Origin: Halalkalibacterium halodurans
Lineage (GTDB): Bacteria; Bacillota; Bacilli; Bacillales; Bacillaceae_D
DNA length: 24,065 nt
Reading direction: 5' to 3'
NCBI RefSeq assembly: GCF_004376175.1
Contig: NZ_SNUY01000054.1
Location: 1 to 24,065 of the forward strand
The translations under genes were made by a program, and so were the position numbers. The notes under the pieces were generated by a model that was not told the DNA's origin, did not search any database, and worked only from the letters and a program-made list of their open reading frames with translations. Shown piece by piece: positions 2,639 to 24,065 of this stretch. Every line of letters starts with the position of its first letter. Position 1 is the first letter of the stretch.

Positions 2639-2660
2639 GGTTTCACCTCCAAACTTAGAT

Positions 2661-2710: not shown

Positions 2711-2757
2711 TTTGATTTTGCTTATTTTCAGCTATACCAATACTTTAGATTGCCTTT

Positions 2758-2864: not shown

Positions 2865-2870
2865 TCTTTT

Positions 2871-3224: not shown

Positions 3225-3237
3225 TAAATCACCTCAC

Positions 3238-3277
3238 CAAAACAAAGAAATAGCCCTCGTGGTTTTCCACAAAGGCT
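3238..3277 (-). terminator. Rho-independent terminator-like hairpin immediately upstream of the HNH RBS
   Basis: The minus strand reads AGCCUUUGUGG-AAAA-CCACGAGGGCU (11 bp including 2 G.U pairs) followed by AUUUCUUUGUUUU. The HNH Shine-Dalgarno sequence comes directly after. Confidence 0.55.
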
Positions 3278-3334
3278 TTTTACAGTTTTCCACAATACCA
3301 CTATATAACCTTTCTTTAAGAAATTCGTCCACAA
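3263..3334 (-). promoter_or_regulatory. Three direct copies of TTGTGGA(A/C) between the activator gene and HNH (candidate activator-dependent late promoter or leader)
   Basis: On the plus strand, ttttccacaa occurs at 3263-3272 and 3286-3295, and tccacaa at 3328-3334. A TATATAGT -10-like element on the minus strand lies between them, with no canonical -35. Confidence 0.3.
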
Positions 3335-3343
3335 TATTACTCA

Positions 3344-3802: not shown

Positions 3803-3806
3803 CGTA

Positions 3807-6269: not shown

Positions 6270-6672
6270 AATTAAAAGGGATGCCACTTTTGTTTACTAG
6301 CCAGTCTACATTTTCTCTGTTTATTAGATAGACACTTGCAGGCTTCTTAAGAGCCGACAATCGTTCCTGTTCTGTACCGATGGCTACCGAAAACTCCAGT
6401 CCTTTTAAATGCTCCCACTTATTTATCTCAGCTGGCCAAGTATCCCTTGCTACCCTTAGAGGGGCAATGACCAGAACCTTTCCAATTTCAAAACTATCAA
6501 GACATAAATCAAATATAGCAGTTAAAGTGATTACGCTTTTGCCAAGACCCATCTCTAAAAACACCGCTGCTATGGGATGCTCTAGAATGAAGTTCGTTGC
6601 ATAGGTCTGATATCTATGAGGATTGTATTTCACCCAGTATCCCTCCAATCTGCTTAACGTCATCAATGACAT
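6270..6672 (-). pseudogene. SNF2-family helicase, N-terminal fragment (Walker A/motif I)
   Basis: The fragment carries HRYQ (motif Q/Ia-like), LEMGLGKSVITL (motif I) and VLVIAPLRV. The frame ends in ..GIPFN and then runs into the IS end (stop TGA spans 6268-6270). The likely true start is GTG at 6633, after GGAGGG. Confidence 0.85.
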
Positions 6673-6895
6673 AACAGGTAAAACCTAGCTTCTGTAATTG
6701 CTTTATTCTTCTAATCTGTAACAGGCGAGGTTTCTTTCCGGGAGCCTTTAATTCTATAAAAGCCATCTTCCCATGTGGTAAAAGCACTAGGCGGTCTGGC
6801 ATTCCATCTAAACCTGGGCTAACAAACTTCGCTGCAATGCCTCCCATCTTTTTTACCTCAGCCACCAGTTTCTTTTCTATATATTTTTCAAGCAT
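6614..6895 (-). CDS. VRR-NUC domain nuclease
   Basis: The sequence MLEKYIEKKLVAEVKKMGG...GMPDRLVLLPHGKMAFIELKAPGKKPRLLQIRRIKQL..GF matches the VRR-NUC D..(E/D)xK pattern. The ATG at 6895 is preceded by GGGAGGT. The longer track ORF to 6979 has no RBS and runs through a repeat tract. Confidence 0.85.
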   Translation of the reverse strand: MLEKYIEKKLVAEVKKMGGIAAKFVSPGLDGMPDRLVLLPHGKMAFIELKAPGKKPRLLQIRRIKQLQKLGFTCYVIDDVKQIGGILGEIQSS

Positions 6896-6952
6896 AAATA
6901 CCTCCCATATAAAAAGGCTCGGAACAAGAAAACAACTTTGACCCAATTTTCC

Positions 6953-6980
6953 TATACGCGCGTGTATGCGTGTATGCACA
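6953..6980. repeat. 28-nt perfect alternating pyrimidine-purine tract containing a tandem 8-mer (cgtgtatg x2)
   Basis: tatacgcgcgtgtatgcgtgtatgcaca alternates pyrimidine and purine at every position. cgtgtatg occurs at 6961-6968 and 6969-6976. Confidence 0.9.
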
Positions 6981-7027
6981 AGCTACTATTACTTCTTTTT
7001 ACTATTTATAAATAAATTAGGATACTT

Positions 7028-7207
7028 CTTGTTCCTCTTGTTCCAAACCGTTGATTTTCCTTGTCATTACTTACTTTAGGGAAAGAACTAGTATGGGAAC
7101 AAAGTAAGGGACAACTTAGCTTTGTTCCTCAACTCGGGAATAAGCTCGTTGCTTTCCATAGATAGGAAAGTTACTTGTTCCATTCTTGTTCCCAGTGTAC
7201 TTGTTCC
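7028..7207. repeat. Iteron-like array: five perfect CTTGTTCC copies plus two degenerate copies
   Basis: cttgttcc occurs at 7028-7035, 7037-7044, 7174-7181, 7185-7192 and 7200-7207. tttgttcc is at 7121-7128 and the inverted ggaacaaa at 7096-7103. The array straddles the primase stop codon (7116) and is adjacent to an AT-rich stretch (6985-7022). Confidence 0.8.
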
Positions 7208-9482: not shown

Positions 9483-9913
9483 AAGCTTTCGACCTCCTCA
9501 TGCTCCGGACTAAAATACCTGACCGTTTGTCTACGTTTCTTGGCTACTTCAATCTCCCTTGCCATACCGCTTGAAATGGTATTGCCTAGCACCCAAACCT
9601 CGGAGCATTTACCCATGAGCACGATGTCCATAAAAATGGCAAGTTCCCGTTCCTCAGGATTTTCATCATCCATAAACTGCGGAAACATAAGGTGGGGAGC
9701 AATTGGTATACAATTACTTTCCAAGGCAAACCTGCAAAAGCTACGAGCCTTTTCAACGTTTCCTTCTACATCACCGGAATAGGGAGAACAGATATATACA
9801 AGCGGCTTAAAGGCAGATTTTTTCTCTGCCTTTTCCTTTCTCATTATGTTGGTTAGTGCTTCATGGGGAGTTGGGTCATGGTATCCTTCATGGTTAAATT
9901 TGTTGATTCCCAT
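9479..9913 (-). CDS. Nucleoside 2-deoxyribosyltransferase-like (DUF4406/DUF1937-type) phage protein
   Basis: The core LVYICSPYSGD...NVEKARSFCRFALESNCIPIAPHLMFPQFMDD..ERELAIFMDIVLMGKCSEVWVLG..ISSGMAREIEVA resembles that fold family. The assignment is from memory of the family pattern only. Both gene ends overlap their neighbours (TAATG at 9913, a 4-nt overlap at 9479-9482). Confidence 0.5.
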   Translation of the reverse strand: MGINKFNHEGYHDPTPHEALTNIMRKEKAEKKSAFKPLVYICSPYSGDVEGNVEKARSFCRFALESNCIPIAPHLMFPQFMDDENPEERELAIFMDIVLMGKCSEVWVLGNTISSGMAREIEVAKKRRQTVRYFSPEHEEVESL

Positions 9914-10665
9914 TACACACCCTCCATTTCTATCTGCGGCAAAATACCGTCCGCCTTCATCAGTTCGTAAATGAAGAGTCTGCCTTTTTGAGTCCAGTAT
10001 GTATGGACCTTTGTATGCTGTTCTCCGTTCCTACCTAGGTAGCTATGTGTCTTTGTACTGGTGTATTCTTTTTCCGCATGCTTCTGATATAAAAGCCAAA
10101 TGCCGCCTTGTTTAAACTGGACGCCCTTTTTATTGAGATAGCGGTTCATCCAAATAGCTGATTTACCGTAATCTTTGGCAATTGCTGATGTGGAAATGAG
10201 GTCTTTGCAATTTAAAACCACATCGTAATAGGACACTTTCGGTTTCATTTCTGCAATTTGCTGATTCTGAACAGCAACCGTACCTTCAAGCACTTTATTT
10301 TGTTTTCTTACTTGAGTTAGCTGTTGATTGGCAATTTGAAGTGCCCTTGCCATGATTGCTTCTGGGGAATTCCATCTTCTTTCTATTTCAAGAAAGTATT
10401 GGCGGCACTCTTTTCCTTTTCGAGTACGCTGTATCATGCATAGCTCTTTTGCCATATCTAATGTTATTTGATGATCTACAGCTGGTCTTCCACCTGTACT
10501 TTCCGACAGAAATGTCGAAAAGTCCGCCCCTTCCTCAAATCCGTACTCACACATTCTTGGAAACCATTTATCATAAGGTGTTTTTACTTCCAAGGTTTCA
10601 TGTAAATCACGACCGAGTACGGTTGGTCGTTGATTTTCATAATTGATTTTTACTAATTCGTCCAT
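9913..10665 (-). CDS. Phage antirepressor (AntA/AntB-type N-terminal domain plus KilA-C/ANT C-terminal domain)
   Basis: The N-terminus reads TVLGRDLHETLEVKTPYDKWFPRMCEYGFEEGADF...DHQITLDMAKELCMIQRTRKGKECRQYFLEIERRW. The C-terminus reads ISTSAIAKDYGKSAIWMNRYLNKKGVQFKQGGIWLLY. The ATG at 10665 is preceded by GGAGGT; the track start at 10683 is a TTG lying inside that RBS. Confidence 0.85.
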   Translation of the reverse strand: MDELVKINYENQRPTVLGRDLHETLEVKTPYDKWFPRMCEYGFEEGADFSTFLSESTGGRPAVDHQITLDMAKELCMIQRTRKGKECRQYFLEIERRWNSPEAIMARALQIANQQLTQVRKQNKVLEGTVAVQNQQIAEMKPKVSYYDVVLNCKDLISTSAIAKDYGKSAIWMNRYLNKKGVQFKQGGIWLLYQKHAEKEYTSTKTHSYLGRNGEQHTKVHTYWTQKGRLFIYELMKADGILPQIEMEGV

Positions 10666-10704
10666 ACGAATTACCTCCTGCAATATAGTCAGAGGAAAGT
10701 TCCT

Positions 10705-12720
10705 CTACCTAATAGCCACAGGAGGAGGCGTTTCCGTATCCTGCGTCCACACATAACGTAGACTGAAATCGTCCAACTCGTGGTCACTCGCGGTCACAGT
10801 CACAGTCGTGGATGCGGATGGAGACCAATCCTCGCTTCCGTTTATTTCGAAATCAATGTTGGGAGCAGCACGTTCCACATGGACGTCAACCGTTGCTTTC
10901 AAGTCCTCTGGATTCCGAACATCCTCGGGCAGCTGGAGCTCTCCTGTGAACGTATATGTCCCCATTGTCCAGTGGTCATATTCCGGTTCCCCGTCGTCCC
11001 ATACAACGTCCAATGGAACGTTCAATTCCACCGTATCTCCTTTTTTCAAGGCAACCTCCGCCTGGGACGGCAGACCTATGCGCGAACGTTCAACCCCAGT
11101 AGTAACGTGAATATCATCTAGATTGGAAACCGCTACGATTTCCTGATAACCAGCAACAGAAACCGTAACGTTGTCGCTTGCCATACCTCCATATTCCGTT
11201 TTAACGGTCACCTCCACGTGAAGTTCTCCTTCGCTGCTCGTGTCGAGCAGCAGCGTATCAGCGGACCCTGCAGAAGCATCATCAACGAACCATTCAACGC
11301 TCGTGATATCAAAATGGCTATGTTCATATTCCACCGTTAAGGAAATTTCCGTGCCAAGTGCGAACTCAATTGGTTCGGGTACTCTCTCACCATCGTAAAG
11401 GATTGTTACGTCCGGTTCAGATTCAAATGCGACAAAAGCAAACCCTTGTGTGTCAGCGTATTCTTCCGTCGTCGATCCTGTATTACCGATTAACGTAAGT
11501 TCAGAAGGGTTGTTCGCAAAAACATTTGACCAAAACTCAATCTCTGGATTGTGAATCACGACATCAGTAAGGTTATTATCTTCAAAAGCGTTAGGCCAAA
11601 TCTGCTCTACACTTTCAGGAATGACTACTTTCGTCAGCATGTTTTTGCTAAAAGTATAGTTATTAATAATGGTCAGGCGATTAGGCAGTTCAACTTCAGT
11701 AAGGTTATTATTGTAAAAAGCACTATCCCCGATCGCCGTCACACTGTCAGGAATAACGACAGACTCCAGTGCGTTATTCATAAAAGCAGCTGCGTTAATT
11801 CTTGTCACGCTGTCCGGAATGACCACTTCCTTCAACCGGTTATACTCAAAAGCATAGCTGCCGATGGTCGTCACACCATCCGGAATGACCACAGATTCCA
11901 GGCGATTCCCGGAAAAAGCATTTTGCCCAATCGTGGCCAAGCCGTTCCCATAGGTGATCTCGGTTAGTCTGTTGTTTTTAAAAGCATCTTGTCCTATCGG
12001 TGTCACACGATCCGGGATCATTAATGTCCCCAGCTGGTTTTCCTCAAAAGCCCGATCGCCAATCGTCGTGACATTTTCGCCAATGACAACGTTTTGCAGG
12101 CGGTTCTGGGCAAATGCCCAATTGCCAATCGAAGTCACACTATCTGGAATGGTCACTTGTGTAATAGGGTTCCTTGATCTAAACCACGAAGTATCCCCTG
12201 TGAAAGCATAATTCCCGATGGTCGTCAGCGTCTCAGGCAAGGTCACCGCTGTAAGCCGATTATCCTGGAAAGCCCGGTCCCCGATCGAGATCACACCATC
12301 CGGAAGGATTAATTCAGTAAGCTGATTACCATAGAAAGCCCGCTCCCCAATCTGCGTCACCTTCAATCCACCGATTTCACTTGGAATCTCCAGCGTGGTC
12401 GACGAAGAGCCGTTCCAGCCCGTGATCGTCGCTGTACCGTCTCCATTGTCAGCGTATTCAAAATCGCTGTCCATGTCCATGATTGTATAGCCGTGATCGC
12501 CATCATGTTCTCCTGACATTTGATAAGCCAGCTCTGAAGGAATCACCAGCTCGGTGTCTGTACTGTTATCGTGGGAATTTATCGTGTTTCCGTTATCTCG
12601 CTCCCACGACAAGTCAGCTGATTCGTCCGCGTTCACCTGCAAAACAGGTGATAATGGAGCCAATAATAAAACAATAATGACGAGCCATGAAGTCAATGTC
12701 CTGTTCCTTTTATTCACCAA
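10705..12720 (-). CDS. Secreted BspA-type leucine-rich-repeat protein with C-terminal Ig-like region and no recognisable anchor
   Basis: The signal peptide is MVNKRNRTLTSWLVIIVLLLAPLSPVLQVNA/DES. About 13 tandem 22-aa repeats follow the pattern V(V/T)IPDxVTxIGxxAFxxNxLxx. A beta-rich region with acidic stretches follows. The TTG start is preceded by AAGGAG. GC content is host-like, unlike the phage block. Confidence 0.85.
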   Translation of the reverse strand: MVNKRNRTLTSWLVIIVLLLAPLSPVLQVNADESADLSWERDNGNTINSHDNSTDTELVIPSELAYQMSGEHDGDHGYTIMDMDSDFEYADNGDGTATITGWNGSSSTTLEIPSEIGGLKVTQIGERAFYGNQLTELILPDGVISIGDRAFQDNRLTAVTLPETLTTIGNYAFTGDTSWFRSRNPITQVTIPDSVTSIGNWAFAQNRLQNVVIGENVTTIGDRAFEENQLGTLMIPDRVTPIGQDAFKNNRLTEITYGNGLATIGQNAFSGNRLESVVIPDGVTTIGSYAFEYNRLKEVVIPDSVTRINAAAFMNNALESVVIPDSVTAIGDSAFYNNNLTEVELPNRLTIINNYTFSKNMLTKVVIPESVEQIWPNAFEDNNLTDVVIHNPEIEFWSNVFANNPSELTLIGNTGSTTEEYADTQGFAFVAFESEPDVTILYDGERVPEPIEFALGTEISLTVEYEHSHFDITSVEWFVDDASAGSADTLLLDTSSEGELHVEVTVKTEYGGMASDNVTVSVAGYQEIVAVSNLDDIHVTTGVERSRIGLPSQAEVALKKGDTVELNVPLDVVWDDGEPEYDHWTMGTYTFTGELQLPEDVRNPEDLKATVDVHVERAAPNIDFEINGSEDWSPSASTTVTVTASDHELDDFSLRYVWTQDTETPPPVAIR
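11506..12396 (-). repeat. Coding tandem repeats (about 13 x 66 bp) of the LRR domain
   Basis: The periodic motif IPD(S/G)VTxIGxxAF...N.L spans aa 109-405 of the 671-aa protein. Confidence 0.8.
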
Positions 12721-13022: not shown

Positions 13023-13059
13023 TTAAAAAGCCAAGAGAGGAGCATCTTCTCCTCTCTTG
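13023..13059 (-). terminator. Rho-independent terminator ending the guanidine-operon/VOC-remnant transcription unit
   Basis: A perfect 12-bp stem forms between ccaagagaggag (13030-13041) and ctcctctcttgg (13048-13059), with a 6-nt loop. On the minus strand it is followed by CUUUUUAAU. Confidence 0.6.
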
Positions 13060-13119
13060 GCAGGTAGCTATTTTCAATTTTTCCCCACACATACTCCTGT
13101 GAAGTTTTATACGTTCACG

Positions 13120-13456
13120 TCAATCTTTGTTCGCGTCTCCTGAAAAGACTGAAATTGTCTCTATCAGTTTTTTACTACTATTTTAATCGTATTTCCGGAA
13201 GGATCTTCAATCGTCATGTCTTGATTGTCCTCCCTGTAAGCGTACCCGTAATGTTTAACATTCTCTTTTGCCCTTCTCTACTCTTCGTCAGTAAAATGAA
13301 GGGTAAAATACTTTAATCCTAATACATTTGTTGTCGGTTCAGGCAGACCCTTTCCTGACCAAATATTCATCCCAATGTGATGATGGTAGGCGGCCTTGAT
13401 ACAAAAAGCGAGTGTTCCTACATCGCTCCTGAAAGATACTCCGCTTTCCGTCTAAG
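13120..13456 (-). pseudogene. Remnant of a VOC-family ring-cleavage dioxygenase (CatE/Mhq-like), C-terminal part only, with an in-frame TAG
   Basis: My minus-strand translation reads VSFRSDVGTLAFCIKAAYHHHIGMNIWSGKGLPEPTTNVLGLKYFTLHFTDEE*RRAKENVKHYGYAYREDNQDMTIEDPSGNTIKIVV. The YHHHIG.N.W block and the ...EDPSGN.I.I ending are typical of type I extradiol/VOC proteins. The internal stop is at 13278-13280. There is an upstream stop and no start codon. Confidence 0.5.
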
Positions 13457-13534
13457 CTGGTGAGCGGCCTCGTGCTACGCACGGGGGTGTCTCATCATTG
13501 CTTTTTCTTCCGCGTTCTTTAACAAAATGCCCCG

Positions 13535-15286
13535 CTAACAGGATTCATTTAGTTGCAGTAACTTGCGCCAGCCCCCTAACGCTGTTATATCTTCTGCTCC
13601 GTCTGCTGCATATGCCTCACAGACAAAGCCCGGAACCTCACTGCCATCAGCAAGCTCGACTTTGCCAATACCAAGCGGCGCTGGAATCATCTTTGTAAAT
13701 TTCCCAAATTCGGAAAGCGGCATTTCCCAAATTTCTAGCTCAATTGATCCACCGCTGCCATCATTCTTTTTTATCATTCCAGGCTTTGCCGGCTCGGATG
13801 GCAATTTAACGAGTTGATATACCGGGGCTGACATGTCTTCACGCATAAAACGAGCACGGCACTCCTGCATTTGCTTTTCTAACGGTAACCCTCTCATGTG
13901 TAATCCGCAAACAGCAATCAAAGTCTTCTCTTCTTCGGATTGAGTGCTTGATTGCAAGAATAAATTAGCCGCTCCGCGAATCAAACCTTCCCCCTCTGCT
14001 AAGCCAAATATCGTGATGCCAAACGGTAGATGCACATCAGCCTCTCCTGCCGGAATCGCAACAGCGCACATATCTAGCAAATTACAATGATTCGTATAGC
14101 GTCCCATCTCACTGTTGGTTCCAATTGGATTTTCACGTACTTGGTCGCGCGTCCACGTTCCCCCTGCTGTCGGAAGAACGAAAACGCTATTTTCGAGAAG
14201 CTTCTGCGCCTGACGTTTATAGGCTTGAAGCTGATGTTGCGCCCGGAAAACAGCTGCTGCATCATACTGGCTTGCAGAACCAGAACGAAGCACCTCTTCT
14301 GTCACGGGGAAAGTCGCGCCTGGATGCCCTTCGACAAACTCCCCGAGTGACGCCCAGCGTTCTGCTACCATCGGTCCGCCATATAAAAGCTCAGCTGCAT
14401 CTGAAAGGAACGTAGTGTCGACATAATCTACGTCCACACCTAAGCATTCAATTTGAGCAACAGTACGTTCCCAGGCATTCTGATACTTATTAGCAAAAGG
14501 TCCATAAAACTCCGGTGCCTGCTTCGGTAATACAAACCGTTTAGGGAGCGATGCATTGGGCACTGGTAATTCCCGTGACCACGGATCCTCCTCCTCAAAT
14601 CCACGTGCCACACTGTCGACTAAAATAGCATCCTCAATACGATGGGAGAAAACCGTTACACAATCCAAACTCGCACAAGCCGGAACTACACCTTTTGTTG
14701 ACCAAGCTCCAAGACTCGGTTTATATCCAACTAGATTATTCAACAATGCTGGAATTCGGCCAGATCCTGCTGTATCGGTTCCTAATCCAAATACGGCTTG
14801 ACCACGAGCGACTGAAACCGCTGATCCTGAGCTTGAACCGCCACTAATTAATTCTGGACGAAGCGAATTATGAGTTTCACCAAACGGGCTGCGTGTCCCG
14901 ACTAATCCTGTTGCAAATTGATCGAGGTTTGCTTTTCCAACTGGAATCGCACCTGCAGCAATCAACCGCGCCACAACCGCCGCATCCTCGTTCGGCTGAT
15001 ACGCATATTCCGGGCAGCCTGCTGTTGTTGGAACCCCAGCTAAATCAATATTGTCTTTAATGGCAAATGGAATTCCCCAGAGAGGTGAACTCTCGATATC
15101 AAGAGAGTTCAGTCTTTCTAAGTAAGGATGGATCAGCTCAAGGGAAGGTGGAGTAATCCAAATATTCATGTCTGCGTCTGCTTTCGCTCGTTCAATAATT
15201 TCGAGAACAACTTCTTTTGGAGTCAGTTTCTTCCTATAATATTGTTCTCTTAACCATTCAGCCGTTAATTGATACGGAATGTTCAT
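13535..15286 (-). CDS. Allophanate hydrolase (amidase-signature family with C-terminal AtzF-type domain)
   Basis: The amidase signature is GGSSSGSAVSVA...GTDTAGSGRIPA and the protein is 583 aa. Its start overlaps the carboxylase stop (ATGA at 15283-15286). Confidence 0.9.
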   Translation of the reverse strand: MNIPYQLTAEWLREQYYRKKLTPKEVVLEIIERAKADADMNIWITPPSLELIHPYLERLNSLDIESSPLWGIPFAIKDNIDLAGVPTTAGCPEYAYQPNEDAAVVARLIAAGAIPVGKANLDQFATGLVGTRSPFGETHNSLRPELISGGSSSGSAVSVARGQAVFGLGTDTAGSGRIPALLNNLVGYKPSLGAWSTKGVVPACASLDCVTVFSHRIEDAILVDSVARGFEEEDPWSRELPVPNASLPKRFVLPKQAPEFYGPFANKYQNAWERTVAQIECLGVDVDYVDTTFLSDAAELLYGGPMVAERWASLGEFVEGHPGATFPVTEEVLRSGSASQYDAAAVFRAQHQLQAYKRQAQKLLENSVFVLPTAGGTWTRDQVRENPIGTNSEMGRYTNHCNLLDMCAVAIPAGEADVHLPFGITIFGLAEGEGLIRGAANLFLQSSTQSEEEKTLIAVCGLHMRGLPLEKQMQECRARFMREDMSAPVYQLVKLPSEPAKPGMIKKNDGSGGSIELEIWEMPLSEFGKFTKMIPAPLGIGKVELADGSEVPGFVCEAYAADGAEDITALGGWRKLLQLNESC

Positions 15287-18200
15287 GATACCGACACCGC
15301 CTCTTCCTTTTCTTGTCGAATGCCAACAATGAGTTGACCTGCATGCACTTCATCACCTGGTTTGACGTAAATGTTGTCGATATAGCCGTCACATGTTGCC
15401 TGCTGAGGAAATTCCATTTTCATGCTTTCTTCGATTAACACCGTTTCGCCCTTTTTAACGAATTGACCAGGCTCAATTAGCACTTTCCAAACACTTCCCG
15501 GCATGGAGCAACGAACACCGACAACTCCCTGAGGAAGCTCTTCTTCTTCCTTTTCAACAATTGTATCCTGCTCTGAGATGTACTCCGCAAGACCTTGTTT
15601 CTTCCAGCTTTCGCGCTCAGCTCTAAACGCATCCTGCTGCTTCTTACGGAACACAGTGATTTCTTCCTCAATTGACGCTAAAAAGGCTAAATAATCCCCC
15701 AGTTTAAAAGTCGTTTCGGTAATATCTACTTCAAAGCGGCCACGCGGGAAATCTTCACGGAGCTTAAGCAGCTCATCGGCACTTACTGGGTAGAACTGAA
15801 TTTGATCAAAGAAACGAAGCAGCCATGGCTTACCTTCTTCAAAGTTCTTTGTTGAATGAAGCTTATTCCACATTTGAATCGTCCGACCGACAAACTGATA
15901 TCCGCCAGGGCCTTCCATTCCGTAGACACACATATACGCGCCACCGATTCCAACGGCATTTTCCGGAGTCCAAGTACGTGCCGGATTGTATTTTGTTGTG
16001 ACAAGACGGTGGCGCGGATCGATTGGAGTCGCCACTGGAGCTCCTAAATACACATCACCTAAGCCCATAACTAAATAGTTTGCATTGAATACGACATCTT
16101 TTACTTCATCTAAATTGTTCAAACCGTTAATGCGGCGGATAAATTCCAAGTTACTTGGGCACCACGGTGCATCTGGACGGACATTTTTTTGATAGCGATC
16201 CGTTGCAAGCTGTGTCGCTGGATCATCCCAAGATAACGGAAGCTTAACGATACGAGATGGCACTTCAATTTCCTCAAGCGGCGGCAGCTGGCTGTCGAGC
16301 TCCATTATTTTCACTGCGGCTTCTTGTACGGTTGTTTTCGTTCGGTCAATATGAACTTGTAACGAGCGAATCCCCGGTGTTAGTTCAATGTACGGAATGT
16401 CACCGCAATCTTTAATCGCATCCATTAAGACATGAGCTTGAAAACGAAGCAATAAATCAAGCTCCATGTCTCCGTATTCAACAAGTAGATATTCATCGCC
16501 TGAGCAGCGAATCGTCATCGGGAATCGTCTGTTTTCCTCCTGTGCCAAAATCGGATAATTGGAATCAATCTCTCTTTTCTCTGGCAGCACACTCTCGACA
16601 CGGACATTCGTTCTTTTTCCTTCGCCAATCGCCATTAATTGCTTTTCCTGCTCCTGCCTGAGTTCGTTCGCATCATCAAGAGTTAACAGTTTAAAACGGA
16701 TTGTATCACCTGGATGCAGCTGTCCAAGCTTCCAGAATTCAGCCGATGCCGTTGTGACGGGACAAACGAAGCCCCCTAAGCTCGGGCCATCCGGGCCTAG
16801 TAAAATCGGCATATCTCCTGTTAAATCAAGCGTTCCAACAGCATACGCATTATCATGGATGTTCGATGGGTGCAAACCCGCATCTCCGCCATCTTCGCGC
16901 GTCCACTTAGGCGCAGGTCCAATTAAACGGACACCCGTCCGAGAGCTGTTAAAATGTACGTCAAAGCTTGTTTCCGTTAATTGCGTTAAGTATTCCGGTT
17001 CTAAAAACTCCTCCGTACAATGCGGACCAGGAATCACACCGATCGTCCACGTATTCGTCATTCTTGGTCGTGAAGGAAGATCAAGCTCATTTATTTCAAC
17101 TGGCTCCACTCCACCGTTAACGTTTAACACATCGCCAGGACGTAGAGCACGACCACCATGACCGCCAAAACCGCCCAATGTAAACGTTGCGGCACTTCCG
17201 AGAGTAAGCGGCATATCAAAACCGCCGGCAACCAATAAGTAGCTGCGCATCCCTATTTTCGCTTCTCCGAATTCAAGCACTTGACCTTTTTTCGCTAAAA
17301 TCGGCTGATACAGTGGAACATTTTTTCCATCTAAATGGGCGTCCATGTCAGCCCCTGTCAGGCAAAACCAAATATCATTTCTAAATTTGTACGAACCACC
17401 GCGTAATGTCAGCTCAAGTCCTGGTGCCGTGTCATCGTTGCCAAGTAGTTTATTCCCCACTCGGAATGAAAGTGGATCCATTGGGCCGCATGGCGGAACT
17501 CCAACATCCCAGTAACCAGTTCTTCCAGGGAAATCTTGTACTGTCGTTTGCACACCGCCATCCAAGACTTCAATTGCGTGTTCTGCTGGCTCAAAGTCAT
17601 TTAACATTCGGGTATAGACGCGACCTGCTCGACACTCTTCGTTTAGTAATAACGCTTGCAAATATTGCAGGTTCGTCGTGACCCCGTAAAACCGTGTTTC
17701 TTCTAACGCTTGGTGAAGCTTGTTTATCGCATCTTCGCGATTATTACCGTGAACGATTATTTTCGCCAGCATCGGATCATAAAGCGAAGTCACCGTGACA
17801 CCGTCACGTAGCCATGTTTCAACACGAGCTTTCTTCGATAGTACAACTTGATCTACTTGCCCAGCACTTGGCCGGAAGTTTTGTAGGCAATCTTCTGCAT
17901 AAATACGCGCTTGAATACTATGTCCTGCTGGCTGCTGCACAAGTGACGGTAAATCCTTCAATTCATTTGCCGCTTCTTTCACCATCCATTCCACTAAGTC
18001 AACGCCTAACACTTCTTCTGTAACACCATGCTCAACTTGAAGTCTCGTATTCACTTCTAGGAAGTAGAACTCCTCCGTTTCAGGGTCATATAAAAATTCG
18101 ACCGTACCCGCACTACGGTAACCCACCTCTTCAGCCAAGCTCTTTGACGCGGCAAACATTTTTTCTCGCACGGAAGCGGATAGATTAGGAGCTGGACTTT

Positions 18201-18918
18201 CCTCAATTACCTTTTGGTTTCGGCGCTGAATCGAGCAGTCACGCTCTCCCAATGTGACGACTTCCCCTAAAGCCGTTCCGAAGATTTGTACTTCCACATG
18301 ACGCGCTTTTGCAATATATTTTTCTAAAAAGAGTCCGCCATTATTAAAGTTTGTTTCAGCAAGATGACGAACCCCTTCGTACGCTTGTCTTAATGCCTTC
18401 TCGTCTTCACAAACACGCATACCTATTCCGCCGCCGCCCGCAGTGCTTTTTAAAATAACAGGGTAGCCAATTTTTTGGGCTTCCCGGAGCGCTTCATCTA
18501 ATGCTGTCAATAAATTCGTACCTGGCAGCAACGGGACGCCCGCTCTCATTGCAATTTCACGAGCCGAGTGCTTCAACCCGAACATCTCCATTTGCTCCCC
18601 AGTTGGTCCGATAAAGGCAATGCCCTTTTCCATACAGGCACGAGCGAAATCAGCATTCTCACTTAAGAAGCCGTAGCCTGGATGAATCGCTTCAGCCCCC
18701 GTTTTTACGGCTGTTTCCAAAATAAGCTCAGCATTTAAATAACTATCTTTTGCCGGGCCTTCTCCGATTAGCACGGCTTCATCAGCATGCTCGACATGGA
18801 GGCTGTCCTGGTCAGCTTCTGTATAGACAGCAACCGATTTCACCCCTAATTTTTTTAATGTTCGCTCTATTCGAACCGCAATAGCGCCGCGGTTTGCGAT
18901 TAAAACTTTCTTAAACAT
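15283..18918 (-). CDS. Urea-carboxylase-family biotin enzyme, predicted guanidine carboxylase (given the ykkC leader)
   Basis: This is a 1211-aa protein. It has an N-terminal biotin carboxylase domain (KVLIANRGAIAVRI, ATP-grasp GGGGIGM), a central KipA/KipI-like carboxyltransferase region, and a C-terminal biotinyl domain (ESMKMEF). Confidence 0.95.
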   Translation of the reverse strand: MFKKVLIANRGAIAVRIERTLKKLGVKSVAVYTEADQDSLHVEHADEAVLIGEGPAKDSYLNAELILETAVKTGAEAIHPGYGFLSENADFARACMEKGIAFIGPTGEQMEMFGLKHSAREIAMRAGVPLLPGTNLLTALDEALREAQKIGYPVILKSTAGGGGIGMRVCEDEKALRQAYEGVRHLAETNFNNGGLFLEKYIAKARHVEVQIFGTALGEVVTLGERDCSIQRRNQKVIEESPAPNLSASVREKMFAASKSLAEEVGYRSAGTVEFLYDPETEEFYFLEVNTRLQVEHGVTEEVLGVDLVEWMVKEAANELKDLPSLVQQPAGHSIQARIYAEDCLQNFRPSAGQVDQVVLSKKARVETWLRDGVTVTSLYDPMLAKIIVHGNNREDAINKLHQALEETRFYGVTTNLQYLQALLLNEECRAGRVYTRMLNDFEPAEHAIEVLDGGVQTTVQDFPGRTGYWDVGVPPCGPMDPLSFRVGNKLLGNDDTAPGLELTLRGGSYKFRNDIWFCLTGADMDAHLDGKNVPLYQPILAKKGQVLEFGEAKIGMRSYLLVAGGFDMPLTLGSAATFTLGGFGGHGGRALRPGDVLNVNGGVEPVEINELDLPSRPRMTNTWTIGVIPGPHCTEEFLEPEYLTQLTETSFDVHFNSSRTGVRLIGPAPKWTREDGGDAGLHPSNIHDNAYAVGTLDLTGDMPILLGPDGPSLGGFVCPVTTASAEFWKLGQLHPGDTIRFKLLTLDDANELRQEQEKQLMAIGEGKRTNVRVESVLPEKREIDSNYPILAQEENRRFPMTIRCSGDEYLLVEYGDMELDLLLRFQAHVLMDAIKDCGDIPYIELTPGIRSLQVHIDRTKTTVQEAAVKIMELDSQLPPLEEIEVPSRIVKLPLSWDDPATQLATDRYQKNVRPDAPWCPSNLEFIRRINGLNNLDEVKDVVFNANYLVMGLGDVYLGAPVATPIDPRHRLVTTKYNPARTWTPENAVGIGGAYMCVYGMEGPGGYQFVGRTIQMWNKLHSTKNFEEGKPWLLRFFDQIQFYPVSADELLKLREDFPRGRFEVDITETTFKLGDYLAFLASIEEEITVFRKKQQDAFRAERESWKKQGLAEYISEQDTIVEKEEEELPQGVVGVRCSMPGSVWKVLIEPGQFVKKGETVLIEESMKMEFPQQATCDGYIDNIYVKPGDEVHAGQLIVGIRQEKEEAVSVS

Positions 18919-18984
18919 CTAAAAACCTCCACTCTTTTTATCTATAGGGAGAAGATTCCAAGAAAACCTCCCTCTCAGAAAATG

Positions 18985-19635
18985 TTATTTTTCCCAGATT
19001 AGTACTCGTATCGGTGTCGGATTGTAAGCATTACAAGGGTTATTTAACTGTGGACAATTACTAATTAACGCTGTCGTACGGCATTCTGCTTTCATTTCAA
19101 CGTAACGATTTGGACCCGATACTCCATCTTCGAATGTGAGACCTCCCTCTGGTGTAACAGGGACATTCATAAAAAAGTTAATGTTCGGTGCTAAATCCCG
19201 CTTCGTATAATTGCCGTCGTATTTTGCCATTTGCAGCATGAACGTATCGCGGCAATTGTGCATAGGCAGCGTGTCATGTGCGTAACGAACAGTATTACTT
19301 TGGGCTGAACACGCCCCGCCTAATGTATCATGGCGGCCACATGTATCAGCGACAATCGTCATTAATCGTTTCCCCGATTCTGCTCTAAGGATCGACCCTG
19401 TTGATAAATAAATATTTTTTTGCCCGACAATCGTCGCCACAGCACTATAATGATCATCTGGATTCTCAGCATCAAAAAATAACGTGTCCGCTGCTTGATT
19501 TCCCTCTAAGTCCTCAATTCGAAGTACTTGCCCCGGCTCTATTTCACGCATCCAGCCATCTCCTGCTTGAATAACCTCACTATAAATCGCTTCTTCCACT
19601 TTGCGCTCGCTTTCAACTCGATTAAAAACAGCCAT
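18985..19635 (-). CDS. Urea-carboxylase-associated DUF1989 protein (candidate carboxyguanidine deiminase subunit)
   Basis: This is a 216-aa paralogue of the upstream gene. The shared pattern is ...D(T)LGG...S..., NCRDTF versus the [24 protein letters not shown] blocks. It holds the conserved position between the riboswitch and the carboxylase. Confidence 0.85.
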
Positions 19636-19647
19636 GTGATCTCCTCC

Positions 19648-20358
19648 TTATTTCATTAATGTTTCGTATTCCCAAGTATTTTCAAAAGCACGACGGTTTT
19701 CAGGGCGGAAATTCAAACAAACATCATCTTCTGTGACTTCATCAGCTTCCACCACTTCAATCGTGACTGGAACAGACGGATACGTCGTTCTAGGATCTAG
19801 CGGGTTTGGCGTGTTTGATAGGAGAACAAGCAGATCCATCTCCGTTCTCAATGTAACCGTTGCTCCTTTTGGACAATGGCCAAGAACATAATTCATATCT
19901 CCTGCCTCATCACAGAACACTTTAGAAAATAGATTTACATTCGGAACGAAATCTCTCTTTCCTAACCCATTTCGCACAAGCTCTACTAAAAAATTTTCCT
20001 GCCCGCTGCGGTACCATTCATTACGTAACTTTTGATATGTTGTTTTTCCGTATTTATCATCTGTCAATTCTCTCGTTGTGTAACCAGAGATGGAATCATG
20101 CCAGCCAAGTGTGTCATCGACAATACTCGCCATCACCCGACCGTTGTCACTCATAAGAACATGCCCTGTTGTTAAATGAGAGGTATGCTGCGCTTTTAGA
20201 GTATCCGGCATATTGTAGCGCTCGCTTGTATCGTTCGGATTATAGAGCAACAGAGAAAGATTTGCGCCTTCCTCAAGTGCGGTAAATCGCACTTGCTTCC
20301 CTTTACTAATCACACCCGACCATTTTCCTCCTGCAGGAATCGTTTTAGTCCAGTTCAT
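19648..20358 (-). CDS. Urea-carboxylase-associated DUF1989 protein (candidate carboxyguanidine deiminase subunit)
   Basis: This 236-aa protein is the first gene after the riboswitch. The RBS GGGAGG lies 8 nt before the ATG. It is a paralogue of 18985-19635. Confidence 0.85.
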   Translation of the reverse strand: MNWTKTIPAGGKWSGVISKGKQVRFTALEEGANLSLLLYNPNDTSERYNMPDTLKAQHTSHLTTGHVLMSDNGRVMASIVDDTLGWHDSISGYTTRELTDDKYGKTTYQKLRNEWYRSGQENFLVELVRNGLGKRDFVPNVNLFSKVFCDEAGDMNYVLGHCPKGATVTLRTEMDLLVLLSNTPNPLDPRTTYPSVPVTIEVVEADEVTEDDVCLNFRPENRRAFENTWEYETLMK

Positions 20359-20384
20359 TTCTATTTCCTCCCTGTTTGAAATGA

Positions 20385-20428
20385 TAATAAAAAAGGATAA
20401 AAGCCTGGGAGAAGTCTCCCAGGCTTTT
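20385..20428 (-). terminator. Riboswitch expression-platform terminator
   Basis: The stem pairs aaaagcctgggaga (20399-20412) with tctcccaggctttt (20415-20428). On the minus strand it is followed by AUCCUUUUUUAUUAU. The 5' arm is shared with the conserved 3' block of the aptamer. Confidence 0.8.
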
Positions 20429-20512
20429 ATCCTTCCGTGTAATACAGATTATCTGTACCGCTCTCTCTCGGACCAGGCTTGATGATTCATTCATCAACGG
20501 AACCCTAGATAG
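20415..20512 (-). promoter_or_regulatory. ykkC: Guanidine-I (ykkC) riboswitch aptamer
   Basis: The minus strand reads CUAGGGUUCCG-UUGAUGAAUGAAUCAUCAA-GCCUGGUCCGAGAGAGAGCG-GUACAGAUAAUCUGUAU-UACACGGAAGGAUAAAAGCCUGGGAGA. All the conserved ykkC blocks are present in order: CUAGGGUUCCG, GGUCCGAGAG and ACACGG(A/C)GGGAUAAAAGCC(C/U)GGGAGA. Confidence 0.9.
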
Positions 20513-20565
20513 CTTTTTCGTCCTCAACGCTTTGCGAGAACCTTTATTCGATTAACTTAATTCGA

Positions 20566-20594
20566 AGTATAAAACACAATGAATCCGGCAACAA
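20566..20594 (-). promoter_or_regulatory. Candidate sigma-A promoter of the guanidine operon
   Basis: On the minus strand, TTGTTG (-35, 20589-20594) is followed by a 17-nt spacer and TATACT (-10, 20566-20571). The promoter lies about 45 nt upstream of the riboswitch 5' end. Confidence 0.5.
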
Positions 20595-20600
20595 GGAGTT

Positions 20601-20617
20601 TGTTAGAAAATGTTACA
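20601..20617. promoter_or_regulatory. TnrA/GlnR box upstream of the guanidine-operon promoter
   Basis: TGTTAGAAAATGTTACA is a perfect match to TGTNAN7TNACA. It lies 6 bp upstream of the candidate -35, with its centre about 50 bp from the inferred TSS. Confidence 0.65.
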
Positions 20618-20751
20618 CAGTTTTCTCCAAAAAAACAAGCAGCGGATTTTCCTAGAAGCCATGTGCAAAGCCGATACGATTTTTGCACTTGACTGATTTA
20701 AGCGTGTAACGCATGGAGACTATGCCTTTCCCCTCTTCTATTAAAAAAGCG

Positions 20752-20768
20752 TGTCAGGTTATATCACA
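20752..20768. promoter_or_regulatory. TnrA/GlnR box upstream of the permease promoter
   Basis: TGTCAGGTTATATCACA is a perfect match to TGTNAN7TNACA. It lies 6 bp upstream of TTGAAT. Confidence 0.65.
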
Positions 20769-20774
20769 CATAAG

Positions 20775-20804
20775 TTGAATTCATTACGAATTTCATACAA
20801 GAAT
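20775..20804 (+). promoter_or_regulatory. Candidate promoter of the APC permease gene
   Basis: TTGAAT (20775-20780) is followed by an 18-nt spacer and AAGAAT (20799-20804). The -10 is weak, as expected for an activator-dependent promoter. Confidence 0.35.
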
Positions 20805-20905
20805 TAACTCCATAATCATTTCAAAAATTGGCGAAACAAAATCATTATCTTAGAAAAATTTTAAAGAAGTAGTCGTAGTTATTATCAAAAGGAGCTGGTT
20901 AAAGC

Positions 20906-22273
20906 GTGCGGAAAGAAACAGATTTAAAAAGAACGTTAACCTTGTTTCAAGTTGTCATGCTTGGTCTTGCATGGAATACCCCGATGATTTATTTTTCTGT
21001 TTTTGGTGTAGCGTATGAAGGTTCAAGCGGTTTTTTAACTCCCGCATACACACTAGCTGTCCTAGCTGTACTCTTTACAGGGGCGAGTTATGCTGTTATG
21101 GCGAAAAAAATACCGATTTCAGGATCAGCTTATACGTTTGTCAAAAAAACAATGAACCCGAAGCTCGGTTTTATCGCAGGCTGGATTTTACTATTTAACT
21201 ACCTTTTTGCACCGATTATTGCTTGCATTACGTTTGGAATTTTTCTGAATGCCCAATTCCCGCAAGTACCACCATATGCATGGATTATCGGATTAACACT
21301 ACTCCTCGCTCTTATTAGCATTGTAGGAGTCAATTCTTCAGCGAACATTAGCAGCTTCTTCGTTTTATTGCAAATTATCTTTATTGTCGTTTTCTGCGGC
21401 TTTATGATTAAAGGTTTGATTAACGGTACAGGTGAAGGAACACTTGTATCAATGGAGCCATTTATCAATAGCGACATGTCGCTCTCTGTTGTTTTAGCAG
21501 GCGCCTCCATCGTCATCTTCTCTTTCTTGGGATTTGATACGATGACGACTTTGTCAGAAGAAACAATCAATCCGAAGAAAACGATCCCGCGTGCCATCTT
21601 TATTATGATTGGGATCGTCGGTATTCTCCATGTCTGTACATCTTATTTTATTCAATTAATTGTCCCGAATTTTACATTTCAAAACCCAGATTCAGCTGCT
21701 TTAGAATTAGTTAATATCGTAGGCGGCAGCCTGCTAGGCTCCATATTCATTACCGTCTTAATTGCCGCCATTTTCACGCAGGGATTGGCTTCCGTCACAG
21801 CTGTTTCAAGGCTTCTGTACGTCATGGGGCGCGACTCAATGCTACCGAAAAAATTCTTCGGCTATGTTCATCCTAAATATAAAACACCAGTGTTAAATAT
21901 TATTTTTTCATCCGTCATTACACTATCAGCGATTTTTATCTCTGTTGATGCCGCCCTTCGCTTTGTCAATTTTGGGGCGCTCACAACTTTCTTCTTTGTC
22001 AACCTATGTGTCATCACCATGTACGTTAAGAACAACGAGCAGCGCAACCGCTCCATTAAAGGGATTGTAACTTACTTACTGTCACCGCTGGTTGGCGCCG
22101 CCTTTATTACTTGGCTCCTATTCTTATTAGACTTCACGACGTTAATTGGTGGATTCATCTGGATCGCACTCGGCATGCTCTATCTTATGTTCTTAGCGAA
22201 AGGGGGTAAACGACCGTTTCCACAATCTCAGGCAGAACAAGTAGAGGCCGTAGAAGAGAAAAAAGCGATTTAA
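20906..22273 (+). CDS. APC-superfamily amino acid/polyamine/organocation permease
   Basis: This 455-aa protein has about 12 hydrophobic segments and an APC-type N-terminal pattern (LTLFQVVMLGLAWNTPM...SGSAYTFV). The GTG start lies 11 nt after GGAG. It is divergent from the guanidine operon. Confidence 0.9.
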   Translation: MRKETDLKRTLTLFQVVMLGLAWNTPMIYFSVFGVAYEGSSGFLTPAYTLAVLAVLFTGASYAVMAKKIPISGSAYTFVKKTMNPKLGFIAGWILLFNYLFAPIIACITFGIFLNAQFPQVPPYAWIIGLTLLLALISIVGVNSSANISSFFVLLQIIFIVVFCGFMIKGLINGTGEGTLVSMEPFINSDMSLSVVLAGASIVIFSFLGFDTMTTLSEETINPKKTIPRAIFIMIGIVGILHVCTSYFIQLIVPNFTFQNPDSAALELVNIVGGSLLGSIFITVLIAAIFTQGLASVTAVSRLLYVMGRDSMLPKKFFGYVHPKYKTPVLNIIFSSVITLSAIFISVDAALRFVNFGALTTFFFVNLCVITMYVKNNEQRNRSIKGIVTYLLSPLVGAAFITWLLFLLDFTTLIGGFIWIALGMLYLMFLAKGGKRPFPQSQAEQVEAVEEKKAI

Positions 22274-22311
22274 CTTTTTCAGGTGAAGAATTATATATTC
22301 AAATAATAAAA

Positions 22312-22499: not shown

Positions 22500-24065
22500 G
22501 AGTCAATTTCATAATTTGAACCCTTAGTCTCGCAAGGTTTTCAAGGCACGAAAAAAGGAGTACCTCCCCAAAAGTCGAATGAGTTAAGTGACGAAACAAA
22601 ACTACAGACTGGAGGAAGACTCCCTATGCCTATTATACGACAAGAAAGCCTGTTTGACCTGCATGATTTATATGAGTTAGAGCCTACCCATCGTTTTGAT
22701 GCGGTTTTTTCAGCAATTGATATCAACCCGATTCTTGCGGTCGTGTCAAAAAAAGCCCTATACGGTGCGCCTGTTCAGCTCACCTATTCCGCCATGATCT
22801 ACTCACTCGTCGCTCGAATTCTTGAGCGAATTCCGACAATAAAGGATTTGATTAAACGTCTGAAACACGATTTTATGTTCCGATTGGATTGTGGATTCCT
22901 TCTTTCTGATGCGATTCCATCTGAAGCATCTTATTCAAGAATGCTCTCTAAAATAGCAGAATCACCTGTTCTTGAACAGGTTTAAGAACAGCTCATCCAT
23001 CAAGCGATAGCAGAAGGATTTATCACCGATGACACGATCGCCATTGATGCGACTCACATTGAAGCGAGAGACCAAGCCCCAGCGAAAAAAGAAAAGCCTA
23101 GGTCTGAGCCAAAAAAGCGCGGCCGCAAATCAAAAGAAGAGAAAGAAAAATGGCTTCAAGAACAAGCGGAACAAGAAGCCGTTCGTCCGATTTTCGAGAA
23201 AAAGATTGAAGCCCAACTTGACGCGTCTTTAGTCGAGTTGCGATCCGCTGTCCCCCTTGATCCTAAGTGGGGCATCAAGAAAAACAGTGAAGGAAAAAAC
23301 ATTTTTTGGTTTGGCTACAAAGGCCACTTCGCGGTTGGAGCCAAAAGCCAGTATATCCTTCAGTCGCTCTTTTCCTCGGGAAACCTGAACGATGGAAAAG
23401 CAGCCATCCCTTTATTAAAAGGACTGCAAGAGCGTCTTTTTGAATTAAAAATCGCCTTTAGCACACTCGATGCAGGGTATGATGCCCCTGCGATTTACGA
23501 ACAACTCTATCGAATGAAGACTGGGGCTGTCATTGCTTACAACAAGCGAAATGAACCGAATATAGAAGGATTCGATCACCATTTTGCCCCTACGTGTGTT
23601 CGAGAGCATTCGTATCGGTACGACAGTTACGACGCGAGATACGAGACGTTAAAATACACACGACCGAAAGAATGCAAAGGCTGTCCGTTAGCGCAAGATA
23701 CCCTCTGTCAAAAGGTGTATAAAGTCAAAATCACCACCGATTTGAGACGGTATACATCCCCAGCTCGCGGTTCGAAAGCATGGAAAACCCTTTACAAGCA
23801 ACGAAGTTCAGTCGAGCGAGTCATTGCGTATCTAAAAGAATTCTTCCAATTAAACAATATTCGCTATCGCACAGGAAAACGAGCAAAAGTACAATTTGAT
23901 TTGACGCATTTGATTTATAACGCGGCGAAGCTCGCGTGTGATCGTATAGCCAAGTCCCTTTCTAGCAAGCAGACTAGTCAAGCCGCGTAATTAATTTTTT
24001 AAAAACACTAAAAGCGAAATGGGGGTCGTCTAACAATCGTGAACTAGGCTTTATGAAATTGATTC
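22500..24065 (+). mobile_element. Second IS of the same superfamily (right end at or beyond the window edge)
   Basis: gagtcaatttcataa (22500-22514) matches the reverse complement of 24051-24065 (gaatcaatttcataa) at 14/15 positions. The element encloses a transposase frame homologous to, but divergent from, the one at 4940-6142. Confidence 0.75.
22626..23990 (+). pseudogene. DDE transposase (IS4/IS5 superfamily) interrupted by a single in-frame TAA
   Basis: ORFs 22626-22985 and 23238-23990 are in the same frame (offset 612 = 204 codons). I translated 22986-23237 in that frame without a stop (EQLIHQAIAEGFITDDTIAIDATHIEARDQ...). The only break is TAA at 22983-22985. The DDE/YREK elements are present (LDAGYD, YKQRSSVERVIAYLK). 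Confidence 0.85.

Follow-up and report, generated by a model that had tools for sequence, protein, structure and literature searches.

Guanidine assimilation in bacteria by way of a guanidine carboxylase, a deiminase acting on carboxyguanidine and an allophanate hydrolase, its control by the Guanidine-I riboswitch, and the mis-annotation of the enzymes as urea metabolism were published between 2017 and 2021 and have since been reviewed, as recounted in three later sources (PMC12186494 and PMC11410670, both citing Nelson, 2017, Schneider, 2020, and Sinn, 2021; PMC12508155). Here, a locus of this kind is examined in a 24,065-nt stretch of Halalkalibacterium halodurans (contig NZ_SNUY01000054.1, positions 1 to 24,065; hereafter the window), where a Guanidine-I aptamer heads a minus-strand operon of two DUF1989 genes (cgdA and cgdB), a carboxylase gene (gca) and an allophanate hydrolase gene (atzF), and where a permease gene diverges from them (Table 1). 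There is strong reason to regard the region as the guanidine-assimilation module of a Halalkalibacter-like, alkaliphilic member of the Bacillaceae, gated by its riboswitch in the manner proposed below. A preliminary description, made from the sequence alone, had interpreted the operon in this way; that interpretation repeats the published model and is correct but not new, the locus being a new instance of it. What is new are modest additions, namely the probable importer gene, a conserved box of the type bound by the nitrogen regulators TnrA and GlnR, and the lack of a riboswitch at this gene within the Halalkalibacter clade. They leave what is established about guanidine metabolism as it was.

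Among described systems, the operons of Pseudomonas syringae, Raoultella terrigena, Klebsiella michiganensis and Vreelandella boliviensis are alike in that, according to the literature (PMC12508155; Schneider, 2020; Sinn, 2021), they combine a guanidine carboxylase carrying an Asp signature with CgdAB and an allophanate hydrolase, and in that a Guanidine-I riboswitch at the operon head works by terminator destabilisation. These Gram-negative operons carry an ATP-binding cassette (ABC) importer inside the operon (PMC12186494), whereas the window has a divergent APC permease. A second riboswitch, of the Guanidine-II family, is also frequent before gca in those operons, whereas no match to that family reached the Rfam gathering score in the window, including the interval between the second DUF1989 gene and the carboxylase gene, where the 66-nt spacer can form only a short hairpin without ACGR loops. 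The window differs further in presenting cgdA-cgdB-gca-atzF as a single transcription unit, and in belonging to a Gram-positive alkaliphile.

The gdmH/gimABC genes of Synechocystis (PMC12704784) are alike in pairing a global nitrogen regulator at the promoter with a Guanidine-I riboswitch in the catabolic leader, and the importer there has its own NtcA-dependent promoter, which can be likened to the box on the permease side of the window. The two systems differ in the regulator (NtcA, at a GTA-N8-TAC site at -42, versus a TnrA/GlnR box at about -50), in the enzyme (a Ni-dependent guanidinase versus an ATP-dependent carboxylase route) and in the importer (an ABC system versus an APC permease); moreover, regulation in Synechocystis has been shown experimentally, whereas that of the window is predicted from its sequence. 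By analogy, the window looks like a Gram-positive counterpart of this combination of NtcA and riboswitch. The leader of Bacillus subtilis ykkCD (gdx), the founding Guanidine-I riboswitch, has the same aptamer class and a terminator-based ON switch within the Bacillaceae, but controls a guanidinium exporter for detoxification rather than an assimilation pathway. Finally, in the ammonia oxidisers Nitrospira inopinata and Nitrosospira (PMC11410670), an APC permease predicted to take up guanidine without ATP is linked to guanidine catabolism. The nitrifier permease is directly controlled by a riboswitch, as are most of its counterparts in the Bacillales relatives of the window, but not those of the window and its closest relatives.

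For comparison, one genome per species was scanned for relatives of the first DUF1989 protein; more than 590 turned up, and 80 loci were retained (L numbers are given below only where loci must be told apart). Closest among them are Halalkalibacter urbisdiaboli (89% protein identity, and 87% identity of the DNA across 7 kb) and H. flavus, which marks the source of the window as a Halalkalibacter-like alkaliphile of the Bacillaceae. The DNA shared with H. urbisdiaboli is exactly the block from 13543 to 22279, an 8.7-kb module made up of the operon, the intergenic region and the permease gene; the flanks on either side are unrelated to H. urbisdiaboli DNA.

The Guanidine-I aptamer

When the whole window was scanned against Rfam, a single match rose above its gathering score: Guanidine-I (RF00442) on the minus strand at 20519..20414, with 90.5 bits against a gathering score of 63 (E = 2e-15) and covering model positions 1-107 of 107. 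A covariance model built here from Rfam-confirmed aptamers scored the same sequence at 104.8 bits. The preliminary description had stated that the leader carries all conserved ykkC blocks and had proposed a search of the leader with the Rfam model; the full-length match bears this out, although the end coordinate of 20512 given there had cut 7 nt from an aptamer that extends to 20519. Across 119 homologous matches, 96.7% of helix cells are paired and 393 cells show compensatory double changes compared with 107 in shuffled alignments, while controls in which the helices were slid gave 26-61% pairing; it should be noted that these counts come from an alignment fitted to the model and are biased in favour of the structure. 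Covariation is strong in helices P1 and P1b and in one pair of P3.

The pocket of subtype-1 aptamers consists of G67 as a floor, G68, G84, G85, A86, the G37/A38 dinucleotide and an AAAA loop (PMC5340920). When the D. dadantii numbering was mapped by hand from the pairings in that paper onto the window, ACACGGAAGGAUAAAAGCCUGGGAG placed G67 at 20436, G68 at 20435, G84/G85 at 20419/20418 and A86 at 20417, CCGAGAG placed G37/A38 at 20469/20468, and the AAAA loop was also present. Judged by its nucleotides, the leader is a subtype-1 guanidine aptamer with every ligand-contacting position in place, and it would be expected to respond to guanidine. Because the overall fold is common to ykkC RNAs, a subtype-2 variant that senses ppGpp, PRPP or a nucleotide could also score with RF00442. 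Such RNAs, however, have pyrimidines at positions 67 and 38 (PMC5340920), where the window has G and A; the genes that follow belong to guanidine catabolism and not to purine or amino-acid biosynthesis; and a permissive Rfam scan of 20350-21000 (E <= 10) returned no other credible family. A subtype-2 identity is thus exceedingly improbable.

The aptamer census in the 80 loci relied on the covariance model built here and yielded 116 full aptamers. In 64 of the 80 loci, fewer than 250 nt separate the first DUF1989 gene from an upstream aptamer and the gene order is that of the window, and the 13 loci without an aptamer anywhere belong mostly to Clostridia or Treponema. From these sequences, the riboswitch and operon architecture is common in Bacillaceae and Paenibacillaceae.

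Additional Guanidine-I aptamers precede genes other than the APC permease or cgdA in a number of these loci: L004, L007, L010 and L021 (about 7550-7760), L027 and L036 (about 7760 and about 17060), L054 (17821-17946), L031 (8722-8820), L020 (3264-3358), L045 (7785-7948), L050 (222-335) and L063 (7466-7570, minus strand). Further transporters or enzymes belonging to the guanidine regulon may be encoded behind them.

Competition between aptamer and terminator

The leader also contains an intrinsic terminator that overlaps the aptamer: P3 and the 3' tail of the latter provide the 5' arm (20435-20416), which is followed by an ACTT loop (ACUU in RNA) and a 3' arm at 20411-20392. Its perfect core pairs GGAUAAAAGCCUGGGAG (20432-20416) with CUCCCAGGCUUUUAUCC (20411-20395) through 17 Watson-Crick pairs, to which three pairs reaching into the U-tract are added, making 20 in total before UUUUUUAUU follows. 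Folded alone, the hairpin has a free energy of -35.3 kcal/mol (z = -8.5 against shuffles), and it takes the place of the aptamer's P3 when the complete leader is folded to its minimum free energy. In D. dadantii numbering, the 5' arm covers G68 to G87 and hence essentially the whole of P3, including ligand contacts. Since the 5' arm of the terminator is made of P3 nucleotides, a ligand-stabilised P3 and the terminator are strictly exclusive, which is the arrangement of an ON switch. The same overlap recurs in all 116 related aptamers, in which a terminator (median -25 kcal/mol) covers the 3' end. The ON-switch design put forward in the preliminary description therefore agrees with the folds and is universal among these relatives, as is the exclusivity of the 3' block and the terminator, while the 14-bp stem given there was too short. 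By the competition visible in its sequence, the leader is an ON switch, and guanidine would be expected to permit read-through.

Enzymes encoded by the operon

Curated family models sufficed for an unambiguous assignment of the four proteins, all of which score above curated NCBIfam cutoffs. The two adjacent DUF1989 paralogues represent one subunit clade each, as placed by the hidden Markov models TIGR03425 and TIGR03424: the first passes the former and fails the latter, and the second passes the latter, each thereby matching its own equivalog model. The names A and B follow gene order only. These placements support the proposal, also made in the preliminary description, that the pair forms the heteromeric carboxyguanidine deiminase CgdAB, an activity predicted here from family membership. 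The product of the third gene has 1211 amino acids, matches the 'urea carboxylase' model TIGR02712 over its full length and comprises biotin carboxylase, carboxyltransferase (CT_A_B and CT_C_D) and biotin carrier domains, with the biotinyl-lysine motif SMKME at residues 1165-1169. The fourth protein passes the cutoffs of both allophanate hydrolase models and consists of an Amidase domain (PF01425, 246 bits) and an AH_C domain (PF21986, 158.5 bits), its translation showing the amidase signature GGSSSGS and the lysine of FAIKDN.

A Shine-Dalgarno sequence stands before each of the four tightly packed minus-strand open reading frames (ORFs), that of cgdA being GGGAGGA, 8 nt before the ATG, and the start codon of atzF overlaps the stop codon of the carboxylase gene (ATGA). 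The compact order of riboswitch, two DUF1989 genes, carboxylase and hydrolase, with this overlap, is as the preliminary description had it, and its expectation that automated annotation would label all four genes as urea metabolism holds for the NCBIfam models, which name all four in that way.

Whether guanidine or urea is the likelier substrate can be read in part from the carboxylase. A published rule assigns guanidine carboxylases by an Asp at the position of residue 1584 of the Kluyveromyces lactis urea carboxylase together with an Asp replacing Asn at 1330 (PMC11410670, citing Schneider, 2020; PMC12186494). The K. lactis enzyme (PDB 3VA7, 5I8I) shares this domain architecture, with an alignment that extends over residues 2-1198 (1130 bits), but it acts on urea and has Asn1330, whereas the window enzyme has Asp698 and is not fused to the hydrolase. 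In that alignment (5I8I numbering), D698 lies opposite N1330 ('AVGTLD' against 'SLGAIN') and D955 opposite the retained D1584 ('GLGDVY' against 'GLGDVF'). Asp at both signature positions supports the guanidine reading, and is in keeping with the preference for guanidine that the preliminary description had cited for the carboxylases controlled by this riboswitch class. The same two residues are found in 69 of the 70 complete carboxylase homologues of the related loci.

Could the genes nevertheless form a urea pathway of the urea amidolyase type, with a urea carboxylase, an allophanate hydrolase and two accessory proteins? The urea-related NCBIfam names of all four proteins and the end-to-end alignment with the K. 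lactis enzyme would agree with it. Yet the leader carries a guanidine-specific aptamer whose pocket urea fails to satisfy according to the structural work (PMC5340920), the specificity position holds Asp and not the Asn of urea carboxylases, and paired DUF1989 proteins are needed for carboxyguanidine and have no role in a urea route (PMC12186494; PMC11410670). A urea pathway is accordingly very unlikely, and the operon is better annotated as encoding a guanidine carboxylase, the subunits of a deiminase for carboxyguanidine and an allophanate hydrolase in place of four 'urea' genes. With it, an alkaliphilic member of the Bacillaceae joins the organisms for which use of guanidine as a nitrogen source is predicted.

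Asn, the urea-type residue, occupies the position of residue 698 in one homologue alone, that of L080, a metagenome-assembled genome of the Paenibacillaceae (ZCTH02-B3; gca at 2255-4579). This gca adjoins a DUF1989 pair, and no aptamer was detected on its short contig, which extends only 333 nt upstream of cgdA.

The divergent permease

The permease gene lies with the operon inside the block shared with H. urbisdiaboli, and homologues of its product (50-90% identity) adjoin the operon or cgdA in 39 of the 80 loci, either divergently or co-directionally, in the order aptamer, permease, aptamer, cgdA and so on. A Guanidine-I aptamer of its own precedes the permease homologue in 33 loci by strict criteria and in two more by inspection, out of 38 that could be evaluated; the permease-side aptamer of L013 was found by Rfam. 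Permeases without their own aptamer are those of the window, of L001 and L002 (both Halalkalibacter) and of L065 (Alteribacillus), that is, of the window's own clade. Linkage to the operon and the aptamer-bearing homologues together make the protein a probable guanidinium importer, its substrate being assigned through guilt by association, and the gene, now a neighbouring 'amino acid permease', deserves to be flagged as a candidate guanidine importer. The preliminary description was in this respect correct but incomplete: it lacked both the neighbouring gene, the probable importer, and the probable site for a nitrogen regulator treated below, and the functional unit, which it had bounded at 13535-20512, reaches past the promoter and the TnrA-type box (20617) to the end of the permease gene (22273).

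A plus-strand match of 18 bits at 20350-20413 was considered as a second aptamer and rejected, as it is the palindrome of the terminator. In the Alteribacillus locus L065, a Bacillaceae-1 small RNA (RF01690, 65.4 bits; 7851-7917, minus strand) lies directly downstream of the permease gene.

Probable nitrogen-regulator boxes and putative promoters

TnrA and GlnR share a 17-bp operator, TGTNA-N7-TNACA (PMC4335299), for which an extended consensus, TGTNANAWWWTNTNACA, has been given (PMC4475385). The only two matches to the operator in the 24 kb of the window, where 0.48 would be expected, both fall in the 386-nt intergenic region between cgdA and the permease gene. Box 1 also fits the extended consensus and box 2 departs from it by one mismatch. 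Each box stands exactly 6 nt upstream of a -35-like hexamer that faces its gene, TTGTTG for box 1 and TTGAAT for box 2 on the permease side. In the Halalkalibacter loci L001 and L002 the consensus positions of box 1 are kept while its N positions differ, as are TATACT and the TTG of the promoter, elements that recur in many relatives; box 2 is kept in L001 (at -317).

Among the related loci, a box is present in the 300 nt upstream of 99 of the 116 aptamers, and boxes occur once per 331 nt upstream of aptamers compared with once per 32,576 nt elsewhere, an enrichment of about 100-fold among species that are related and hence not phylogenetically independent. Distances from box to aptamer have their main peak at 80-110 nt, and the box of the window stands at 90. 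A TTG follows exactly 6 nt past the box in 41 of 87 boxes of relatives, and a complete promoter follows in 41 of 87, its -10 element being TATACT in the examples listed. Several of the aptamers without a box are internal ones that would be read through from an upstream aptamer-controlled gene, which fits the box as a promoter element. TnrA-activated promoters have their box centred near -49 to -51. From the arrangement of box, 6 nt, TTGNNN, 17 nt and TATACT, the centre of box 1 falls near -50 relative to the predicted transcription start, so that box 1 probably occupies an activator-type position at a nitrogen-regulated promoter. The promoter and start site of the operon are themselves deduced from sequence, geometry and conservation. 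Neither tnrA nor glnR is among the genes of the window.

That this operon serves mainly to detoxify guanidine, and that the upstream palindromes are something other than nitrogen-regulator sites, is the alternative bearing on these boxes. In its favour are the toxicity of guanidine and the many exporters under Guanidine-I riboswitches (PMC12186494); in B. subtilis, the ykkC promoter carries a TnrA box and is bound by TnrA in vivo, but no regulatory effect was seen under the conditions used (PMC4475385). That binding without effect might be explained, if no guanidine was supplied, by a closed riboswitch terminator. Detoxification as the main role is less easily reconciled with a box enriched about 100-fold in a fixed promoter geometry, with a linked transporter that is probably an importer and not an exporter, with the growth of published pathway-bearing strains on guanidine as sole nitrogen source (PMC12186494) and with NtcA control of the cyanobacterial analogue (PMC12704784), and is considered unlikely. 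The assimilation reading can be extended to a two-input AND gate in the Bacillales, in which a box at about -50 on a weak promoter is combined with the Guanidine-I terminator, and in which the Halalkalibacter/Alteribacillus importer has lost the riboswitch and kept only the box, so that a nitrogen-starved cell could always take up its first molecules of inducer; this extension is somewhat favoured by the present comparison. The conserved box offers a testable model for joining a global nitrogen signal to a substrate-specific riboswitch in Gram-positive bacteria. In the literature searched, no paper was found that links TnrA or GlnR to guanidine catabolism or describes such a coupling in Bacillota, the nearest precedents being the TnrA ChIP signal at B. 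subtilis ykkC and the pairing of NtcA with a riboswitch in Synechocystis.

In many Paenibacillaceae loci, among them those of Paenibacillus and Cohnella (e.g. L005, with boxes starting at 9696 and 9790), a second box lies 10-30 nt upstream of the cgdA aptamer, a distance class that holds 25 cases. It would overlap the promoter or transcription start, and is reminiscent of the pairs of activating and repressing GlnR sites described for Paenibacillus nif (PMC6191146). Between the two boxes of the window, about 90 nt (about 20641-20732) are absent in H. urbisdiaboli and contain a small hairpin (GTGCAAA...TTTGCAC).

Proposed mechanism

A weak sigma-A promoter would start transcription of the operon some 40 nt ahead of the aptamer, and a TnrA/GlnR-family regulator bound at the box near -50 probably activates this promoter under nitrogen limitation. 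When guanidine is absent, the leader would form the terminator of 17-20 bp and transcription would stop before the first gene; guanidinium bound to the aptamer would stabilise P3, block the terminator and let RNA polymerase read through. The guanidine carboxylase, using ATP, bicarbonate and biotin, is predicted to convert guanidine to carboxyguanidine, which the heteromeric DUF1989 deiminase would convert to allophanate and ammonium, and the allophanate hydrolase would then release two more ammonium and CO2. Import of guanidinium is most likely the task of the divergent APC permease, whose riboswitch-less gene appears in this clade to be under the nitrogen-regulator box alone, so that the importer could be made before the inducer is inside the cell. 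The aptamer, its overlap with the terminator, the protein families, the signature residues, the synteny of the module and the enrichment and geometry of the box were computed here; ligand response, enzyme activities, transcription start, the identity and binding of the regulator and the substrate of the transporter follow from them as predictions.

Several observations weigh against this account. A sequence search of the PDB for a CgdAB structure returned only distant DUF1989 proteins and trimethylamine N-oxide demethylase, and guanidine carboxylases retain some urea activity according to the literature. No aptamer was found upstream of the window permease even at E <= 10, and the permease scores only 61.8 bits, against a cutoff of 740, with TIGR03428 ('permease, urea carboxylase system'), the one curated model for permeases of such systems. 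The -35 element of the operon is poor, matching at 3 of 6 positions, and a simple sigma-70 scan missed the proposed promoters, in the case of the operon because of that poor match. The kinship of the species in which boxes were counted also belongs here.

Table 1. Features of the guanidine locus in the window (coordinates in the 24,065-nt stretch; bit scores with model cutoffs in brackets).
Feature	Coordinates	Strand	Evidence
First strong intrinsic terminator downstream of the operon	13030..13061	-	13-bp stem and T-run, about 470 nt past the atzF stop codon
Allophanate hydrolase (atzF type)	13535..15286	-	NF006043 680.3 bits (487); TIGR02713 622.6 bits (511)
Predicted biotin-dependent guanidine carboxylase (annotated urea carboxylase)	15283..18918	-	TIGR02712 1755.8 bits (1303.85); domains
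DUF1989 protein, UAAP2 type, predicted second carboxyguanidine deiminase subunit	18985..19635	-	PF09347 202.4 bits; TIGR03424 303.8 bits (284.7)
DUF1989 protein, UAAP1 type, predicted carboxyguanidine deiminase subunit (cgdA)	19648..20358	-	PF09347 194.6 bits; TIGR03425 312 bits (206)
Intrinsic terminator (expression platform)	20386..20435	-	Hairpin 20435..20392, then U-rich run
Guanidine-I (ykkC subtype 1) riboswitch aptamer	20414..20519	-	RF00442, 90.5 bits
Putative sigma-A operon promoter	20566..20594	-	-35 TTGTTG (20594-20589), 17-nt spacer, -10 TATACT (20571-20566)
TnrA/GlnR-type box 1, TGTAACATTTTCTAACA (minus-strand reading)	20601..20617	.	Exact TGTNAN7TNACA
TnrA/GlnR-type box 2, TGTCAGGTTATATCACA (plus strand)	20752..20768	.	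Exact TGTNAN7TNACA
Divergent APC-superfamily permease, probable guanidinium importer	20906..22273	+	AA_permease, AA_permease_2

Flanking parts of the window

On the minus strand between atzF and the downstream terminator (13061..13030) there is no ORF of at least 60 amino acids. The interval 13062-13534 has no Rfam match and no similarity to the Halalkalibacter loci, and contains an ORF of 17 codons with a good ribosome-binding site (MTIEDPSGNTIKIVVKN), perhaps the remnant of a gene. Between the operon and the left part of the window, a minus-strand gene (10705-12720) encodes a secreted-looking, adhesin-like protein of 671 amino acids with BspA-type leucine-rich repeats and a Big_4 Ig-like domain.

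The left part itself (122-10683, minus strand) is a prophage-like or mobile replication and modification module that is not shared with the Halalkalibacter relatives. It encodes a C5 cytosine methylase, a ParB-N/N6-N4 methylase, an HNH endonuclease, an SNF2-type helicase, a VRR-NUC nuclease, a VapE-like primase/helicase, a DUF7768 protein and an AntA/KilAC antirepressor. The SNF2-related helicase gene appears to be split into an N-terminal part (6268-6672) and a C-terminal part (3807-4802), between which lies an inserted insertion sequence (4940-6142) with a DDE transposase of 400 amino acids (DUF772 and DDE_Tnp_1). On the other side of the locus, an IS1182-family transposase is present in two plus-strand ORFs, an N-terminal DUF772 part (22626-22985) and a C-terminal DDE part (23238-23990). 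This split transposase is probably degenerate, and it marks where, on the right, the block in common with H. urbisdiaboli ends.

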